Virus record (IMG/VR): IMGVR_UViG_2568526230_000010 | Length of the DNA: 44,797 nt | Reading direction: 5' to 3' (one strand) | Origin: a virus | Lineage: Duplodnaviria; Heunggongvirae; Uroviricota; Caudoviricetes | Shown here: positions 6,122 through 35,933 of the stretch, piece by piece | Numbering within the stretch: the first letter of the stretch is position 1 | Layout: each line of letters opens with the position of its first letter | Made by a program: the position numbers and the translations under genes | The notes under the pieces: generated by a model | Seen by the model: the letters and a program-made list of their open reading frames with translations, nothing else | Databases searched by the model: none | Told to the model about the DNA's origin: nothing

Positions 6122-6147
6122 ATTTACATCGCACTCCTCTTGTGCCA

Positions 6148-6240
6148 TAGTAATCGGGCACTGGCAAAATCCAGTGCCGGGATTGGCGTCCCGGATTACT
6201 AGTAGGCGCATACCACGCCAGACGTGGTTTTTTTATGCGT
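6148..6240 (+). ncRNA. Candidate structured small RNA: tRNA-like three-way junction plus intrinsic terminator
   Basis: 8-bp closing stem TAGTAATC/GATTACTA encloses hairpins GGCACTGG-CAAAAT-CCAGTGCC and GGGA-TTGGCG-TCCC, followed by terminator ACCACG-CCAGA-CGTGGT plus T7; no credible ORF on either strand. Confidence 0.4.
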
Positions 6241-6389
6241 ATAGCACAGTCATATCCGAATTATGGTGGGCTGGGCAGGGGCACCGAAAGGTGCGCCGGT
6301 ACCTACTAGGCCGGTACGCCAACCTTGTCCAGTTCACCACCAGCAATTGGCGTTGCGGTGGTGGGTAACTTACTAGTAGAGGTATCGCT

Positions 6390-6896
6390 ATGCCAGGCCA
6401 AAAAATCTCAAACGACGATCTGTATTGGTTAATTTCTAATTCTCCACTCCTTCTTATGCTAAGGCAAGAAAGTGCACCACTGGTCAGTGAATTGATTAGC
6501 TGTAGAAATAGAATGTGGGATGAAGGGGCAGATTTAGATACCAATTTGTTTGATCATCTTATGCAACTAGCAGTCGATAACAAGGCAAAACTACGCTCTG
6601 AATACAACGCTTATCCAGAAATAGCAAAATACCTTAACGCTGAAATACTTGGTGGACCAGGTCAACCAGACCTAAAAACAAAAGATGGTTACCCTGTTGA
6701 GGTGAAGGTAGATACTTTTTCTCCTTCAGCATTAAAACAATTATTAAGGTATATGGATGCTTCTGGCGCAGATTTTGGTTTTGCTTGTGCAAAAACTCTT
6801 TCTGTAAAACTCCCTGAAAACATAAAGTTCATCCAGTTAGATTATAAAGATAATTGCTATTTCGTCGTGAAAGATGGAGGCAATGAAAATGCGTAA
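6390..6896 (+). CDS. Hypothetical protein, AT-rich accessory gene coupled to the antirepressor-like gene
   Basis: 168 aa; RBS GAGGT 5 nt upstream; lower GC than flanking phage genes; its end overlaps the start of the next gene. Confidence 0.55.
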   Translation: MPGQKISNDDLYWLISNSPLLLMLRQESAPLVSELISCRNRMWDEGADLDTNLFDHLMQLAVDNKAKLRSEYNAYPEIAKYLNAEILGGPGQPDLKTKDGYPVEVKVDTFSPSALKQLLRYMDASGADFGFACAKTLSVKLPENIKFIQLDYKDNCYFVVKDGGNENA

Positions 6897-7608
6897 TATA
6901 GCTATTGATAAGTTGCCGATAACAACTCATTGCAACATCCCTGTAATGACTACAGAAATGCTTGCTGATTTGTATGACACAGAACCCAAACTGATTCGTC
7001 AAAACTATCAACGAAATGCAGATCGATTCATTGAGGGAAAACATTGTTTCAAGCTGATAGGCGAAGAATTACGAGCATTTAAGAACGAGTCCTCTCAAAG
7101 AGGTTTGCTTAATATTGCACCAAAAGTAAGTCATCTTTTCTTATGGACCGCTCGCGGTGCAGCACGACATGCGAAAATTCTTGAGACTGAAAAAGCGTGG
7201 GAGGTCTTCGAAAAACTGGAAGATTGCTACTTCGACAGAAAACCCGCAAATGTCAGTGGAGATGTTCGTCTCTCAGGTGGAGCTGATTTATCAAAGGCCA
7301 CTCAGGTAATTGAAAAATTCATGCCCGCCATTATGGAGGCGATCAAGCTGGAAGACAAAAAAGAATACAGTGCCCCACTGAAGCCCGGCTACCGCAGCCT
7401 GATTCATTCTCCGTCTGGTGTTCTCGGCCTGACGGAGAACTCACTGCTGATGAATCTGCTGAACCAGTTACAGGAAGACGGGCACGACGTATCGGGCGCG
7501 GCGGCGGAGCTGACCACCATGTTCTGCTACATCGTCGGTGTGAGCAAATGCCTGCGTGATATCCAGACCCACGCGGAGTACATCAACGACAAGGCAGGGT
7601 TCTTCTGA
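6889..7608 (+). CDS. Antirepressor-like protein with N-terminal ORF6N-type DNA-binding domain
   Basis: N-terminus fits the ORF6N pattern (VMTTEMLADLYDTEPKLIRQNYQRNADRFIEGKHCFKLIGEEL); C-terminal domain is a paralog of the 5818..6075 product. Start placed at the ATG 8 nt after GGAGG; the ORF track starts at 6874. Confidence 0.65.
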   Translation: MRNIAIDKLPITTHCNIPVMTTEMLADLYDTEPKLIRQNYQRNADRFIEGKHCFKLIGEELRAFKNESSQRGLLNIAPKVSHLFLWTARGAARHAKILETEKAWEVFEKLEDCYFDRKPANVSGDVRLSGGADLSKATQVIEKFMPAIMEAIKLEDKKEYSAPLKPGYRSLIHSPSGVLGLTENSLLMNLLNQLQEDGHDVSGAAAELTTMFCYIVGVSKCLRDIQTHAEYINDKAGFF

Positions 7609-7680
7609 CGGGCGGCGGCACATGGATGTGCCTTTAAATAATTCTGTACAGATTGCAGACTGTGGGTGAATAGCGTACTA

Positions 7681-7695
7681 TTACCTCAAGGGTAA
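7681..7695. promoter_or_regulatory. Operator-like palindrome TTACCTCAAGGGTAA
   Basis: Family member with one mismatch, between the antirepressor-like stop and the toxin module; followed by hairpin ACGGATT/AATCCGT. Confidence 0.4.
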
Positions 7696-7755
7696 ACGGA
7701 TTGGTTTCATTTTTATTAATCCGTGTAATGAACTTATGAGATATGAGGTAATGTC

Positions 7756-7935
7756 ATGCGAAACGAAAAATTGCAGATGCGTAGAGCGCAAGCTGCCGCA
7801 AGACGTTCTTTCAATGGAAGCGTAGAGTACGTAAAAGTTACTATGACAAAAGATCACGCAAGTCGCGTATCCCGCGCTTTCTTTGATTCTCGTAACAATA
7901 AGGAAAATTATGAGTTCGTCTGCGTCGCAGAATGA
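7756..7935 (+). CDS. Small basic protein, candidate antitoxin or regulator partner of the YafO-like toxin
   Basis: 59 aa, below the ORF-track cutoff; RBS GAGGT 6 nt upstream; Arg/Lys-rich; its 3' end overlaps the toxin start by 26 nt. No Phd/YefM/YafN-like signature recognised. Confidence 0.35.
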   Translation: MRNEKLQMRRAQAAARRSFNGSVEYVKVTMTKDHASRVSRAFFDSRNNKENYEFVCVAE

Positions 7936-8455
7936 TAAAAATCAAATTGTCAGATATAAGGGTCGAGTGTTGCATACGCAAAATTTCTCGGCCCTTTGTG
8001 CATCTGATCTTGAGCTGAAGAAAGTATCTGATGCCTTTACCCAGTATTGGAAAACGGGATACCATCCATCTCTTGGTAAAGATGCTGCATTTGCTCGTCC
8101 GACAGAAATGCTTAAACTAAATGTCAGGCATACTCATGTCGATAACCAAGACTATATTCCAGAAGATAGTGATAAAAAACACACTGGTAAAAAATCATCT
8201 TGGGATGCATGGAAAAATATAGCGTCTGTACAAGTAAAATGCATACCAACAAGTGATTGCTTTTTAGTTTATTCGGTAAATCACAATCGTGATGCGCTGG
8301 TTATGTTTTTTGTTGACGCAGATGCTCACAACATAACTGAGCAAGAAGAGTTTAAAGAGGAAGCAATCACTATCAGTTATCAATTCTTTGAGAAAACAAA
8401 AACAGAACCAATGCCTTTAGAAGAAGATCTTTTTTCTGATAAATGGAAGGAATAG
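7910..8455 (+). CDS. YafO-family toxin homolog (ribosome-dependent mRNA interferase family) with C-terminal extension
   Basis: Aligns by eye with E. coli YafO as recalled: FTQYWKTGYHPSLGKDAAFARP vs FISYKRDGVLPDIFGRDALYD, LNVRHTHV vs ERVAHIHL, CFLVYSV…ALVMFFV vs AHLVYCQ…AWLLIAI. Start at the ATG with RBS AAGGA; AT-rich; followed by a terminator. Confidence 0.65.
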   Translation: MSSSASQNDKNQIVRYKGRVLHTQNFSALCASDLELKKVSDAFTQYWKTGYHPSLGKDAAFARPTEMLKLNVRHTHVDNQDYIPEDSDKKHTGKKSSWDAWKNIASVQVKCIPTSDCFLVYSVNHNRDALVMFFVDADAHNITEQEEFKEEAITISYQFFEKTKTEPMPLEEDLFSDKWKE

Positions 8456-8475
8456 CCCGCAGCGCGGGCTTTTTT
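8455..8475 (+). terminator. Rho-independent terminator
   Basis: GCCCGC-AGC-GCGGGC followed by T6, at the stop of the toxin gene. Confidence 0.7.
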
Positions 8476-8547
8476 GTGGACGAAACACAAGTCAGTGCTA
8501 CACTCATTGACGCCACATTGAGGTGGCTTATAGATGGAAATTTCACA

Positions 8548-8709
8548 ATGAAAAAAGCATTTGCTGCACTGTTCGTTTTGTTGTCTCTGGTAGCTTCAAC
8601 TCAGGCCTTTGCCGGTCGTTGTCAGCACGACAGCGACACTGCTGCTGACGGCTCCCGCTGCGGTGGGCGTTCTGCGGATTCCCGCCCGGGCGGCGGTGGC
8701 ATTCGTTAA
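8548..8709 (+). CDS. Small exported peptide (signal peptide plus about 31-aa Cys/Gly/Arg-rich mature part)
   Basis: MKKAFAALFVLLSLVASTQAFA signal peptide; possible promoter TTGACG-N16-TATAGA upstream; GC-rich, so real coding is uncertain. Confidence 0.35.
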   Translation: MKKAFAALFVLLSLVASTQAFAGRCQHDSDTAADGSRCGGRSADSRPGGGGIR

Positions 8710-8731
8710 AAACAAGGCCGCGAAAGCGGCC
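8706..8731 (-). terminator. Terminator closing the minus-strand late operon
   Basis: GGCCGC-GAAA-GCGGCC (GNRA loop) followed on the minus strand by TTGTTTTT, 15 nt after the stop of the 8746..9306 gene. Confidence 0.6.
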
Positions 8732-8745
8732 TGTGACATGTCACA

Positions 8746-9306
8746 CTACATTGATATATGATTCATAAAGTAGCTTAAAGATTTACTTCCCAGAAAAGAA
8801 ATTTCTTTTCCTGGATATGTCGCAATAATTGAGCATGACTTATCCCCGTTAGAGGTAACAAATCCTGAATAACCTACTTGTTCTTTACCATTTTGTTGCT
8901 TGGCTAAAAAGTAGAGGTAGCTTATCTTTTTGCCCTCTGGGTAAAACTCTGCCAAACCAGTATCGGTGATTGAATATTTTATTCTCCCGCCTTGAGTAAC
9001 GTTTTCCATCTCAAGTTTAGCTATGTCTTTTCTGTTGTATTCAGCATTGATTTTCCTTTCGAAATCAATGTTGTTTTCAAATGAGTAGGAAGCAACAGTC
9101 TGAATAGATGGGAACACGTTTATCTGGATGCCTCCACAGTCGGCACAGGTATAAAGGTATGAATCAGATGGAATCCCCATAAAAGAAAACTGAGTTACCT
9201 TAAATTTATCGCTATCTCCAAAGTATTGAAGTTCGCATTTAACATTTTGCCCTGCAAAAGAAAATGCAGACATCAATATTGAAACAAAAAATATAATTGC
9301 CTTCAT
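8746..9306 (-). CDS. Exported protein of unknown function, AT-rich moron at the end of the late operon
   Basis: 186 aa; signal peptide MKAIIFFVSILMSAFSFA; markedly lower GC than the upstream ejection-protein gene; start 3 nt after the preceding stop. Confidence 0.6.
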   Translation of the reverse strand: MKAIIFFVSILMSAFSFAGQNVKCELQYFGDSDKFKVTQFSFMGIPSDSYLYTCADCGGIQINVFPSIQTVASYSFENNIDFERKINAEYNRKDIAKLEMENVTQGGRIKYSITDTGLAEFYPEGKKISYLYFLAKQQNGKEQVGYSGFVTSNGDKSCSIIATYPGKEISFLGSKSLSYFMNHISM

Positions 9307-25749: not shown

Positions 25750-26106
25750 ATGAACGACCAGCAAATCGAAAAAGAAATCGTTGAGAAAGGCAAAACCGCT
25801 CCGCGAGTTACGCCTCAATATATCGAAAGCATCATTCTTGAAGAGCATTTCTTTACTGCTTATGACGGCATTCGTGCTGCCAATATGGGCGTTGGCGATT
25901 CATGGACAGCGCATAAATCTACAGACCTCCTGACTTTCTGCGTATTGGTACTGAAGAATGGCTTCACCGTCACCGGAGAGAGTGCCTGTGCAAGTCCGGA
26001 AAATTTTGATGCAGAAATTGGTCGGAAGATTGCCCGGCAGAATGCTGTAAACAAAATCTGGATGCTCGAAGGTTACTTGCTGAAGCAGAAGTTAAGCGAG
26101 CAATAA
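25750..26106 (+). CDS. Gp49-like phage protein (N4 gp49 / Sf6 gp66 family), moron on the opposite strand
   Basis: 118 aa; RBS AGGTGAG; sequence resembles the Gp49-like family; transcribed against the surrounding structural operon. Confidence 0.6.
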   Translation: MNDQQIEKEIVEKGKTAPRVTPQYIESIILEEHFFTAYDGIRAANMGVGDSWTAHKSTDLLTFCVLVLKNGFTVTGESACASPENFDAEIGRKIARQNAVNKIWMLEGYLLKQKLSEQ

Positions 26107-34829: not shown

Positions 34830-35060
34830 TCATGAGTAGAAGAAGTATGCCAGTTCTGCTTTTGAGCGCAGCCATTGTCTTGTTTTACAGGCTTTAAAAA
34901 GCCCATTCATCAATACTTTACCTGGCATTTTGCGCTTACCTGTTAAGTGAGTCTGGATATAGTGACTCGTCGTTCCGGCTTCCTGTGCGAAGGCTTCACG
35001 CTCATCCGGAGTAAGTGCAAGCCAGTGCTTTTTGAAATCGAAATGTCCGTTATCGCTCAT
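34830..35060 (-). CDS. Cro-like small DNA-binding regulator
   Basis: 76 aa, basic, transcribed divergently from the repressor-like gene across an operator-rich 154-bp region. Confidence 0.6.
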   Translation of the reverse strand: MSDNGHFDFKKHWLALTPDEREAFAQEAGTTSHYIQTHLTGKRKMPGKVLMNGLFKACKTRQWLRSKAELAYFFYS

Positions 35061-35214: not shown

Positions 35215-35799
35215 ATGAAAAGTATCCAGGACGTCCGCAGGCAAAATCTCAACGACTTGATCGACCGTGAATTCAATGGTGTTCAGACGCGGATGGCAGA
35301 AAAACTTGGAACTCAGGCAAATCTGGTAAACCGCTGGGCTCTTGGCAAGAAGGTTATCGGCGACCAGGTTGCGCGAAAAATTGAAGCTGCCGCCAATAAA
35401 CCACGTAACTGGCTTGATATCGATCGCTCGCTTTCTCAGGAAGGTTTTCAGCCTGTCGGCCCAAGCGACATTGGTCAGCTGGCGGCTCACAACCTGGAAC
35501 GCTGGATGAGCGAAAGCCGCGACCTTTCAACTCAGGGAAAACTTCACCGCGCATCCGGCGTCGCCCAGGTGACAATCAGCCGCCTGTTAAACAATGAGGT
35601 CAGTGTTTCCATTTCCACCCTGGAGAATGTTGCATCAGCATTCGGGCGTCACGGCTATGAATTACTGATTCACCCGCACGACCCTGCGACCATCAACTAT
35701 GACCGCTCGCGCTACGCATTGTTACCCGAAACCGAGAAAGCAAAGATCGAAAGTTACATTGAATTTGTCATCAACCAGAACGAAAAAAACAAACAATAA
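35215..35799 (+). CDS. Prophage repressor candidate with two HTH (XRE-type) motifs and no S24 peptidase domain
   Basis: 194 aa; HTH-like segments near residues 20-45 and 105-135; no Ala-Gly cleavage site or Ser/Lys peptidase domain seen; own terminator downstream. Confidence 0.6.
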   Translation: MKSIQDVRRQNLNDLIDREFNGVQTRMAEKLGTQANLVNRWALGKKVIGDQVARKIEAAANKPRNWLDIDRSLSQEGFQPVGPSDIGQLAAHNLERWMSESRDLSTQGKLHRASGVAQVTISRLLNNEVSVSISTLENVASAFGRHGYELLIHPHDPATINYDRSRYALLPETEKAKIESYIEFVINQNEKNKQ

Positions 35800-35856: not shown

Positions 35857-35933
35857 TTACCTAATGGGTAATTTTTTTAACTCATATCTATTGACATCAA
35901 ACCAAATACGCATAATTATTACCTCAACGGTAA
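35857..35933. promoter_or_regulatory. Early promoter flanked by two operator-like palindromes
   Basis: TTACCTAATGGGTAA (35857-35871), -35 TTGACA (35891-35896), AT-rich -10 near 35912-35919, then TTACCTCAACGGTAA (35919-35933). Confidence 0.5.

Follow-up and report, generated by a model that had tools for sequence, protein, structure and literature searches.

A small basic gene coupled to a long-form YafO-family toxin gene: a probable toxin-antitoxin-like cassette at a phage operator in an Escherichia coli Uetakevirus prophage

We describe a pair of overlapping genes in the IMG/VR virus record IMGVR_UViG_2568526230_000010, a stretch of DNA of 44,797 nucleotides (nt) that is referred to below as the window. 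The window is an Escherichia coli chromosomal segment, xseA-guaB-guaA, with a ca. 40-kb prophage adjoining guaA; the prophage is a phiV10/epsilon15-like podovirus of the genus Uetakevirus, whose members integrate at the guaA 3' end (PMC9782041). The pair is probably a bicistronic cassette resembling type II toxin-antitoxin (TA) systems, carried as an accessory insertion in the prophage, in which a small protein is the antidote and the promoter is under the control of a phage regulator. The layout is that of type II TA systems: the genes are adjacent, co-oriented, and overlapping, with the small one first, they are flanked by a hairpin and a terminator, and they are inherited together. Both open reading frames (ORFs) and the 26-nt overlap between them lie exactly where an earlier note on this DNA had placed them. 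The two genes, whose products are given in amino acids (aa), and their ribosome-binding sites are as follows.

7756..7935, plus strand: small ORF with ATG start, 59 aa, candidate antitoxin (phrog_6685, E=3e-45)
7910..8455, plus strand: long-form YafO-superfamily toxin, 181 aa, RelE/HigB-like (BECR) fold; ATG at 7910, stop at 8455
7745..7748, plus strand: Shine-Dalgarno sequence GAGG of the small ORF, recognized in the sequence, 7 nt before the ATG
7900..7904, plus strand: Shine-Dalgarno sequence AAGGA of the toxin gene, recognized in the sequence, inside the small ORF and 5 nt before the ATG at 7910

The small ORF overlaps the start of the toxin gene (7910-7935) in a different frame. Over the 50 codons outside the overlap, the ratio of nonsynonymous to synonymous substitution rates (dN/dS) is 0.15-0.5, typically ca. 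0.25, with dS up to saturation. Homologues form 13 protein clusters with 75-97% identity in Escherichia, Salmonella, Lelliottia, and Hafnia, and more are present in loci of other genera, such as Serratia; phrog_6685, which is 59 positions long, is the small ORF's own PHROG. Linkage was followed in 46 related loci (44 from IMG/VR and two reference loci). The small ORF is located directly upstream of the toxin gene in 45 of these, and L046, the remaining one, has a version that is 55 aa long and more diverged, together with a second copy in tandem. The pair is also kept in another phage type, in a siphovirus tail-gene region where the toxin is 45% identical, and its linkage is seen in three unrelated genomic contexts. 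A frameshifted fusion protein (P0040), which looks like a homopolymer sequencing error, was excluded from the evidence.

The translation signals of the pair are conserved as well. The sequence TATGAGGTGATGTCATG is conserved in the aligned loci of Uetakevirus context and differs in L046, which has a different upstream region, and GATAAGG(A/G) is kept in homologues at the ribosome-binding site of the toxin gene. This arrangement fits translational coupling of the two genes. A minus-strand, terminator-like hairpin inside the small ORF was dismissed, as it is not conserved in homologues.

The small protein had no match in Pfam (including the Phd/YefM and ribbon-helix-helix (RHH) families), NCBIfam, PADLOC (PADLOC-DB v2, E up to 1), or the PDB. 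A scan of genome contigs with the close-family alignment yielded no matches. Identical E. coli loci in RefSeq have no annotated gene at this position, the record of phage TL-2011b lists a hypothetical protein, and our literature searches found no mention of the small protein or the toxin. The earlier note described a small basic, Arg/Lys-rich ORF that lacks a Phd/YefM signature, and the isoelectric point (pI) of 10.0, the 12 Lys and Arg residues, and the absence of profile matches bear this description out; the note also proposed that the ORF could represent a new antitoxin class. That it is the only candidate partner of the toxin holds for the plus strand. The solo toxin that the note also considered is unlikely, given the invariant linkage and the purifying selection on the small ORF. 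We conclude that the small ORF is a genuine, selected gene, tightly linked to the toxin gene, which belongs to no described antitoxin family.

The 181-aa protein contains motifs GKD (residues 56-58), RHTH (73-76), PTSD (113-116), Y121, R127, and AH (139-140). It matches the Pfam profile YafO_toxin (PF13957) above the gathering score (E=8.1e-6, 26.3 bits versus 25; residues 46-152 on positions 3-92 of the 101-position profile), in agreement with the YafO-like assignment of the earlier note. Diverged relatives score similarly (26.5 bits for the L046 toxin and 23.4 bits for a paralogue in L041). PADLOC gave no match (E up to 1), NCBIfam gave only a chance-level one, and the protein belongs to PHROG 1651, which has no assigned function. 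In RefSeq the identical protein, WP_001555612.1, is named 'type II toxin-antitoxin system YafO family toxin' by PGAP, and the toxin assignment is therefore not new.

Since the PF13957 score is marginal and a direct comparison with E. coli K-12 YafO is weak, membership in the family was tested independently. Close relatives of the toxin form 27 clusters with 45-99% identity, all from Enterobacterales. An exhaustive search with a profile of 23 relatives retrieved only 70 clusters from 1.84 billion representative proteins, and these grade from long forms of 160-200 aa to proteins of canonical YafO length (130-150 aa). PF13957 is matched by 39 of 60 aligned members, K-12 YafO among them (with the best E-value, 1e-39), while all other families together produced one stray match (E=0.0046). 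In a 95-sequence alignment that includes 130-aa forms, G56, H76, and H140 are invariant, and F43, P64, and Y121 are conserved in at least 90% of sequences; in the 60-sequence set with K-12 YafO, D58 and S115 also reach at least 90%. An AlphaFold2 model based on the 95-sequence alignment has a mean predicted local distance difference test score (pLDDT) of 91.3 and a predicted template modeling score (pTM) of 0.86; it supersedes an earlier model from 23 close sequences (pLDDT 57), which was not used. Sequence identity to E. coli YafO (132 aa) is ca. 20%. A PDB sequence search with the toxin found no relative, and by sequence there is no YafO-family structure in the PDB; a search of the viral fold database BFVD returned nothing meaningful. 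We conclude that the 181-aa protein belongs to the YafO superfamily as a long form with a BECR fold.

The earlier note ascribed to this protein N- and C-terminal extensions. The latter is real: PMPLEEDLFSDKW, the last 18-20 residues, is a conserved extension of the 160-200-aa subfamily. The supposed N-terminal extension is mostly part of the fold itself, since residues 17-50 form, with high confidence, the two N-terminal helices of a RelE-type fold; only residues 1-9 fall under a pLDDT of 50 (residues 1-10 average 42). An internal insertion (approximately residues 78-112) is present relative to the 130-aa YafO proteins.

By homology with K-12 YafO, a RelE-related translation inhibitor that cleaves mRNA (PMC2814082), the toxin is expected to arrest translation by cutting mRNA. 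Within the family, K-12 YafO is the one protein for which this activity is known (PMC2814082, PMC8546651), and its ribosome dependence is debated (PMC2814082, PMC8546651, PMC11980606). We consider it very unlikely that the 181-aa protein is instead a catalytically dead or repurposed RelE-fold protein and that the pair is non-toxic. The marginal Pfam score would be compatible with such a protein, as would the finding of Culviner and Laub that E. coli YafO is among the weakest cleavers (PMC8546651), and the catalytic residues of YafO have not been established, so that conservation cannot be mapped to function. Nevertheless, His76 and His140 are invariant, Tyr121 is nearly so, and Arg73 and Ser115 are highly conserved all the way from the long forms to canonical YafO; moreover, every lineage has kept a tightly coupled partner gene upstream. 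In one locus, L044, the toxin gene is disrupted and its partner is intact, which is the pattern of decay expected of a toxic gene.

The small protein is most likely the antidote of the toxin. It consists of an Arg-rich N-terminal stretch, RNEKLQMRRAQAAARR (the N-terminal 22 residues have a pI of 12), a conserved core, VTMTKxHAxRVSRAF(Y/F), and the tail NYEFVCVAE. Made from the same transcript as the toxin and translationally coupled to its gene, it would most likely neutralize the toxin by direct binding, for which the evidence is indirect: purifying selection, and a C-terminal motif, described below, that partners of diverged toxins have in common. The contacts could be made by the conserved C-terminal amphipathic helix (M-T-K-x-H-A-x-R-V-S-R-A-F) together with the acidic/aromatic tail, in a way that would resemble the disordered C-terminal segments of RelB, YefM, or PaaA2, which wrap around their toxins. 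The cassette could serve in prophage-linked growth arrest, exclusion, or defense.

Elements that could control transcription of the cassette, and the distribution of the two palindromes discussed below, are listed next.

7653..7681, plus strand: putative σ70 promoter, -35 TTGCAG (7653-7658), 17-nt spacer, -10 TACTAT (7676-7681), from a reading of the sequence
7681..7695, no strand: palindrome TTACCTCAAGGGTAA, a copy of TTACC-N5-GGTAA that overlaps the -10/+1 region and is kept upstream of the cassette in related prophages
5726, 6107, 7681, 25138, 28283, 32796, 32858, 35145, 35857, and 35919: perfect TTACC-N5-GGTAA sites in the window
5494, 8930, 28265, 34760, 35097, and 40940: TTACC-N5-GGTAA sites with one mismatch
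L048 4779; L071 2757; L072-74 2758; L075 2765; L083/L085 2722; L037 5759; L043 5735: TGACG-N4-CGTCA sites in related loci
8454..8477, plus strand: intrinsic terminator AGCCCGCAGCGCGGGCT (8454-8470) followed by TTTTTTG, found in a terminator scan, overlapping the toxin stop codon

A TA-rich, -10-like hexamer occupies the same place in homologous loci. The 15-bp palindrome TTACC-N5-GGTAA has 16 matches in the window at no more than one mismatch (10 of them perfect) versus 0.66 expected, and usually abuts a -10-like hexamer. Sites are found between the divergent genes of a 194-aa, helix-turn-helix (HTH), CI-like repressor (35215..35799) and a 76-aa Cro-like protein (34830..35060, minus strand), and two more follow the repressor terminator at the early-left promoter TTGACA-16-TAATTA. 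Others lie at the start of terS, upstream of the portal operon, at the promoter of the operon for C4 antisense RNA and antirepressor (c4/ant), and upstream of int. In phiV10 (L116) there are 14 matches at equivalent places. A role of this palindrome as a private operator of the TA pair was rejected, since there are 16 copies in the prophage and 14 in phiV10. By its distribution and placement it is best described as the dispersed operator of the phage, standing in a repressing position at the cassette, and the set looks like a P1-style array of dispersed repressor operators for this phage genus. A long-range inverted repeat (7705-7721/7930-7946) was dismissed because it is AT-rich and its part in the 5' untranslated region is missing in homologues.

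It is from the phage-wide palindrome overlapping the -10/+1 region that we draw control of the cassette by a phage regulator. Transcription would start at the σ70-type promoter, whose -10/+1 region is covered by the palindrome common to the immunity-region operators and a dozen other phage promoters. The operon would thereby come under a regulator of the phage, for which the 194-aa CI-like repressor and/or Cro are the probable candidates, instead of being autoregulated by the antitoxin, and the small protein is without a recognizable DNA-binding domain. The same promoter and operator precede a different, paralogous YafO-like cassette in a related prophage, L089, and sequence identity between the two stops right after the operator. 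Thus, the slot belongs to the phage, and the cassettes behind the operator are exchangeable.

These observations also bear on another explanation, in which the pair is an effector of the lytic cycle under repressor control: the YafO-like RNase, turned on once the repressor is inactivated, would have an early function such as shut-off of host mRNA or timing, and the small basic protein would not be an antidote but would serve as co-factor, nucleic-acid-binding modulator, or translational-coupling leader. The early-left promoter beside cI indeed has the same geometry, with an operator over -10/+1 (TAATTA followed by TTACC, 35913-35933), promoter and operator belong to the phage backbone common to two different cassettes, and no known antitoxin domain is found in the small protein. 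We nonetheless consider such an effector unlikely. In chromosomal, integrative and conjugative element (ICE)-like, and other phage settings the pair occurs without this operator and always with the small gene before the toxin gene, which is the signature of a self-contained TA system, and across subfamilies, down to a toxin identity of 25-30%, partner and toxin co-vary. Furthermore, other members of the family possess a palindrome of their own, TGACG-N4-CGTCA, which suggests ancestral autonomous regulation. Ten loci from three genomic contexts have it, each of them once and always shortly before the partner gene; these are relatives of the cassette in other contexts plus two Uetakevirus loci (L037 and L043). 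For the cassette family, this palindrome is a candidate private operator for autoregulation. Neither the window nor phiV10 contains it, and the only palindrome at the promoter of the window cassette is the phage-wide operator.

The upstream partners of other YafO-like toxins vary in length. They are 62-66 aa long in siphovirus tail-gene regions, 55-62 aa on Vibrio and Psychromonas chromosomes, and 50, 51, and 67 aa in ICE-like and chromosomal loci (with toxins of 149-154 aa that are clear PF13957 matches). A Rep3/MobA plasmid locus encodes a partner of 73 aa, and the paralogous cassette, which occupies the same Uetakevirus slot, one of 108-152 aa; on plasmids of Klebsiella, Enterobacter, and Pseudomonas, partners are 'hypothetical proteins' of 165-205 aa. 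Among ten partners scanned, none has a Pfam domain, and neither the 59-aa protein nor the nine others match an RHH family, the only trace being RHH_8 at E=0.03 in the 152-aa partner of the paralogue. The Phd/YefM-type YafN of K-12 carries the only recognizable antitoxin domain among the partners sampled, and in a survey of E. coli six YafO_toxin clusters had 13 partner clusters, of which 8% were known antitoxins (PMC10790755). Thus, a small partner devoid of a known domain is the common state of the YafO family in the loci sampled and not an exception. The earlier note is right that the protein is not Phd/YefM-like; its term non-canonical is overstated, as such partners are usual in the loci sampled.

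Many of the partners align in register in their C-terminal parts, where a hydrophobic residue is followed by M/L-[ST]-x-E-x-[SA]-x-x-[IVL]-S-R-x-[MF], then by ca. 10 residues and an acidic/aromatic end (EFVCVAE, ELFDVFE, EMYDDAE, or KFELA). The plasmid partners of 165-205 aa are without this motif. When groups of partners were compared with hhalign, the window group matched the siphovirus group with P=0.004 and the paralogue group with P=0.003, and the siphovirus and paralogue groups matched each other with P=2e-6. In a background of 5,370 ORFs, a hidden Markov model (HMM) of the window group found, after the first iteration and after its own members, mostly upstream partners of other YafO-like toxins, interspersed with matches to the toxin's own ORF. 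That the small ORF and the partners from other subfamilies form one family is likely; it is not proven, because the reverse HMM search does not retrieve the window group. Homology of the small ORF to the C-terminus of YafN (last ca. 25 residues, EEITRRAEQYLNDMTDDDFNDFKE) is at best suggestive and is not claimed: E was 0.04 for one target, and among the 5,370 ORFs YafN ranked about sixth of the non-training matches (E=2.6).

A broader proposal, which we regard as rather unlikely, is that the 59-aa protein represents the general, hitherto undescribed antitoxin family of the YafO superfamily. The neutralizing module would be ca. 35 residues long and would consist of the helix M-[ST]-x-E-x-[SA]-x-x-[IV]-S-R-x-[MF] and the acidic/aromatic tail. 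Partners of 50-150 aa that go with long and intermediate YafO toxins in phages, ICEs, and chromosomes would have this module in common, perhaps along with the C-terminus of K-12 YafN, whose Phd/YefM domain would then be a secondary acquisition. In Uetakevirus prophages, the cassettes would be plugged into a backbone promoter guarded by the repressor and expressed upon induction only, so that toxin and antidote would be made once repression is lifted. This would place a TA module under the lysis-lysogeny switch, with induction-coupled host shut-off or exclusion of competitors as the outcome.

We also weighed the idea that the small protein is chiefly a DNA-binding transcriptional regulator, a minimal RHH protein or an Arg-rich helix, and that the toxin is held in check mainly at the level of transcription. 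The strongly basic N-terminus would suit such a function, VKVTMT looks like a strand and, with the helix after it, is reminiscent of the beginning of an RHH fold (by sequence reading only), and the weak RHH_8 match and the TGACG-N4-CGTCA palindrome upstream of partner genes point the same way. The idea appears decidedly unlikely, however: no DNA-binding family, RHH or other, is matched by the small protein or by nine other partners, the 16 residues that follow the helix are too few for a normal second RHH helix, and the palindrome is lacking in the window cassette. DNA binding and antitoxin activity are not mutually exclusive.

Additional loci contain related arrangements. In L046 (1630-1845) and L057 (2590-2805) a 71-aa ORF that lies upstream of the partner gene carries the C-terminal partner motif as well (IMTKEQSKSFSDA...NHEFVL); for the copy in L046, hhalign gives P=8.7e-5. 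Since the partner of the L046 toxin is a diverged 55-aa version of the same family, an antitoxin-like gene is tandemly duplicated there; in L057 the partner, 67 aa long, is only loosely similar. In L051-L053, which are the loci on small Rep3/MobA plasmids, a 170-aa YafO-like toxin is preceded by the 73-aa ORF, and a perfect inverted repeat with 23-bp arms, TATTCCCTAAATAGAAATTATTC..., located ca. 100 nt upstream of the ORF start, is a strong candidate operator. In the Klebsiella, Enterobacter, and Pseudomonas plasmids (L111-L114), YafO-family toxins of 136-152 aa follow their 165-205-aa partners after an 8-10 bp gap or with an overlap; these partners, with no Pfam domain and a common C-terminal ...GLRxLADH... 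motif, are another unannotated partner type.

Paralogous YafO-like cassettes are found in many E. coli Uetakevirus prophages, at L022 3680-4631 (minus strand), L041 3588-4542 (minus strand), and ca. 2690-3520 of L087-L103 (plus strand). Their toxin is ca. 170 aa long and 28-35% identical, and the partner ends in ...ELFDVFE or ...MYDDAE. The paralogous cassette is directly downstream of the antirepressor gene in L087-L103, and on the opposite strand and upstream of that gene in L022 and L041. Some prophages have both cassettes.

The genomic setting identifies the cassette as an accessory insertion. Two features delimit it on the phage side.

7620..8686, strand not applicable: segment absent from phiV10 and present here and in TL-2011b (blastn versus phiV10)
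7617..7632, plus strand: hairpin GGCACAtggaTGTGCC, from the sequence, directly after the stop codon of the upstream ORF6N antirepressor gene; a weak terminator-like element

Positions 7650-8500 are 100% identical to E. coli strain Ecol_AZ162, whose annotation corresponds to the window gene for gene, and TL-2011b is the closest among isolated phages over the cassette region (window 7333-8744 matched at 98.3%). In phiV10, window positions 7333-7619 and 8687-8747 are contiguous by blastn. The inserted segment contains the promoter/operator, the small ORF, the toxin gene, the terminator, and most of a 53-aa signal-peptide ORF (8548..8709), and a microhomology, GGGCGGCGG, is common to both of its junctions. 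The hairpin GGCACAtggaTGTGCC stands at the left edge (the boundary is at ca. 7620) and also precedes the paralogous cassette in L089. The insertion lies downstream of the antirepressor gene/operon, in an accessory slot between tail fibre and virion-core genes that in related prophages is empty (phiV10), filled with this cassette, filled with the paralogous one with its 108-152-aa partner, or filled with both.

A hypervariable accessory slot in which allelic cassettes are exchanged is typical of defense hotspots, and it is possible, if clearly less probable than the reading we favor, that the pair is an anti-phage module for abortive infection or exclusion, with the small protein as an infection-sensitive inhibitor that is, for example, degraded or titrated on infection. 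The pair is, in addition, a moron inside siphovirus tail operons, and defense roles of RelE/ParE-superfamily TA modules are documented (PMC11980606). On the other hand, there is no PADLOC match, literature searches found nothing on these proteins, and the prophage operator is placed so as to repress, which may keep expression low as long as the lysogen is uninduced. Repurposing for phage defense, which the earlier note had suggested, thus receives no direct support; the operator suggests expression tied to the regulatory state of the phage and not constitutive expression. It should be added that defense concerns the role of the pair and not its mechanism, and so overlaps with the reading as a TA-like cassette.

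Several points weigh against that favored reading. The PF13957 score of the toxin exceeds the gathering score by a small margin, the hhalign comparison of the toxin profile with E. coli K-12 YafO gives a probability of 6%, and no PADLOC model matches either protein. An HMM built solely from the partners of other subfamilies fails to retrieve the window small ORF, whose tie to those partners comes down to profile-profile P values of ca. 0.003-0.004. The promoter at 7653..7681, which we only infer, was not flagged by a consensus scan (7 of 12 matches, under the cut-off). Lastly, a classical module for addiction or for protection of the lysogen requires that antitoxin be made continuously, and a promoter under repression by the prophage does not sit well with this.

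Other elements were noted around the cassette. An Rfam scan gave three matches at 6145-6344 (plus strand), namely C4 antisense RNA (RF01695, 76.7 bits), isrK (RF01394, 68.1 bits), and, with 45.1 bits, the c4 a1/b1 target element; it found no RNA families inside the cassette. A 168-aa ORF (6390..6896) and the gene of the ORF6N antirepressor (6874..7608) follow shortly after these matches. Together they are a P1/P7-type immI antirepressor operon in a Uetakevirus, immediately upstream of the toxin cassette. The 53-aa ORF (8548-8709, plus strand; phrog_14503, 'membrane associated protein') comes after the toxin terminator. Its product has a signal peptide and a tail rich in Gly and Arg, and in other loci the ORF shows no linkage to the cassette. 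A 'Gp49 family protein' at 25750-26106 (plus strand; RefSeq), by the prophage tRNA-Arg gene, was rejected as a second TA toxin, as it belongs to PF13876 (N4 gp49/Sf6 gp66, E=1.7e-34) and is not a HigB-like Gp49. Assemblies of E. coli HL15 and SF10 contain the phage sequence in the chromosome record plus a separate 41,027-bp circular record, which points to phage DNA that was excised or replicating in the culture used for sequencing.

What is new here is a previously undescribed and probably family-wide small partner of YafO toxins, in a cassette that appears to be wired to a prophage operator. Confirmation of the small protein as the antidote would provide an antitoxin family for a poorly studied clade of RelE-type toxins and would correct RefSeq annotation, in which the toxins now look orphan since the small gene is uncalled. 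It would also establish a clearly bounded example of one toxin fold whose antitoxins are swapped and a tractable TA cassette whose promoter is under a prophage repressor rather than the antitoxin, and it would bear on how prophages use growth-arresting genes in induction or superinfection. The cassette is a variant of the familiar toxin-antitoxin design and not a system of a new category; promiscuous partners are known already, and so are mini-antitoxins that lack a DNA-binding domain.

Compared with yafN-yafO of K-12, the cassette has a toxin of the same superfamily, as indicated by the Pfam match, reciprocal profile retrieval, and the GxD, RHxH, TSD, Y, and AH motifs, and the same order, with an antitoxin-type gene first and tightly coupled to the toxin gene. 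It differs in that the toxin is 181 aa and not 132 aa long, with the internal insertion and C-terminal extension, and in that the partner has 59 aa and no Phd/YefM domain, whereas YafN has 97 aa (hhalign probability 0.1%). The yafNO operon is chromosomal, SOS-linked, and autoregulated by YafN (PMC2814082), whereas the cassette is prophage-borne with a phage operator. From PaaA2-ParE2 (with PaaR2) of E. coli O157 prophages it is set apart by the lack of detectable sequence similarity between the small proteins (no PDB sequence match for the partner profile), by a toxin on the RNase (YafO/HigB-like) side rather than the gyrase-poisoning ParE side, and by a regulator that would be the prophage immunity repressor acting at a dispersed operator and not the product of a dedicated third gene. 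The ribosome-dependent mRNases HigB2 of Vibrio cholerae and HigB1 of M. tuberculosis show 8-9% identity to the toxin, with Foldseek E-values that are not significant, and in higBA the gene order is opposite and the antitoxins are of the HTH type. The P1 C1 repressor acts at many dispersed operators, the immI promoter included, and the prophage described here resembles P1 in having one palindromic operator over many promoters and a C4/antirepressor operon just upstream of the cassette. Unlike P1, it is a Uetakevirus podovirus with a lambda-like cI/cro/OL/OR layout, and the phd-doc addiction module of P1 is autoregulated and not controlled by the repressor, in contrast to the control proposed for the cassette.

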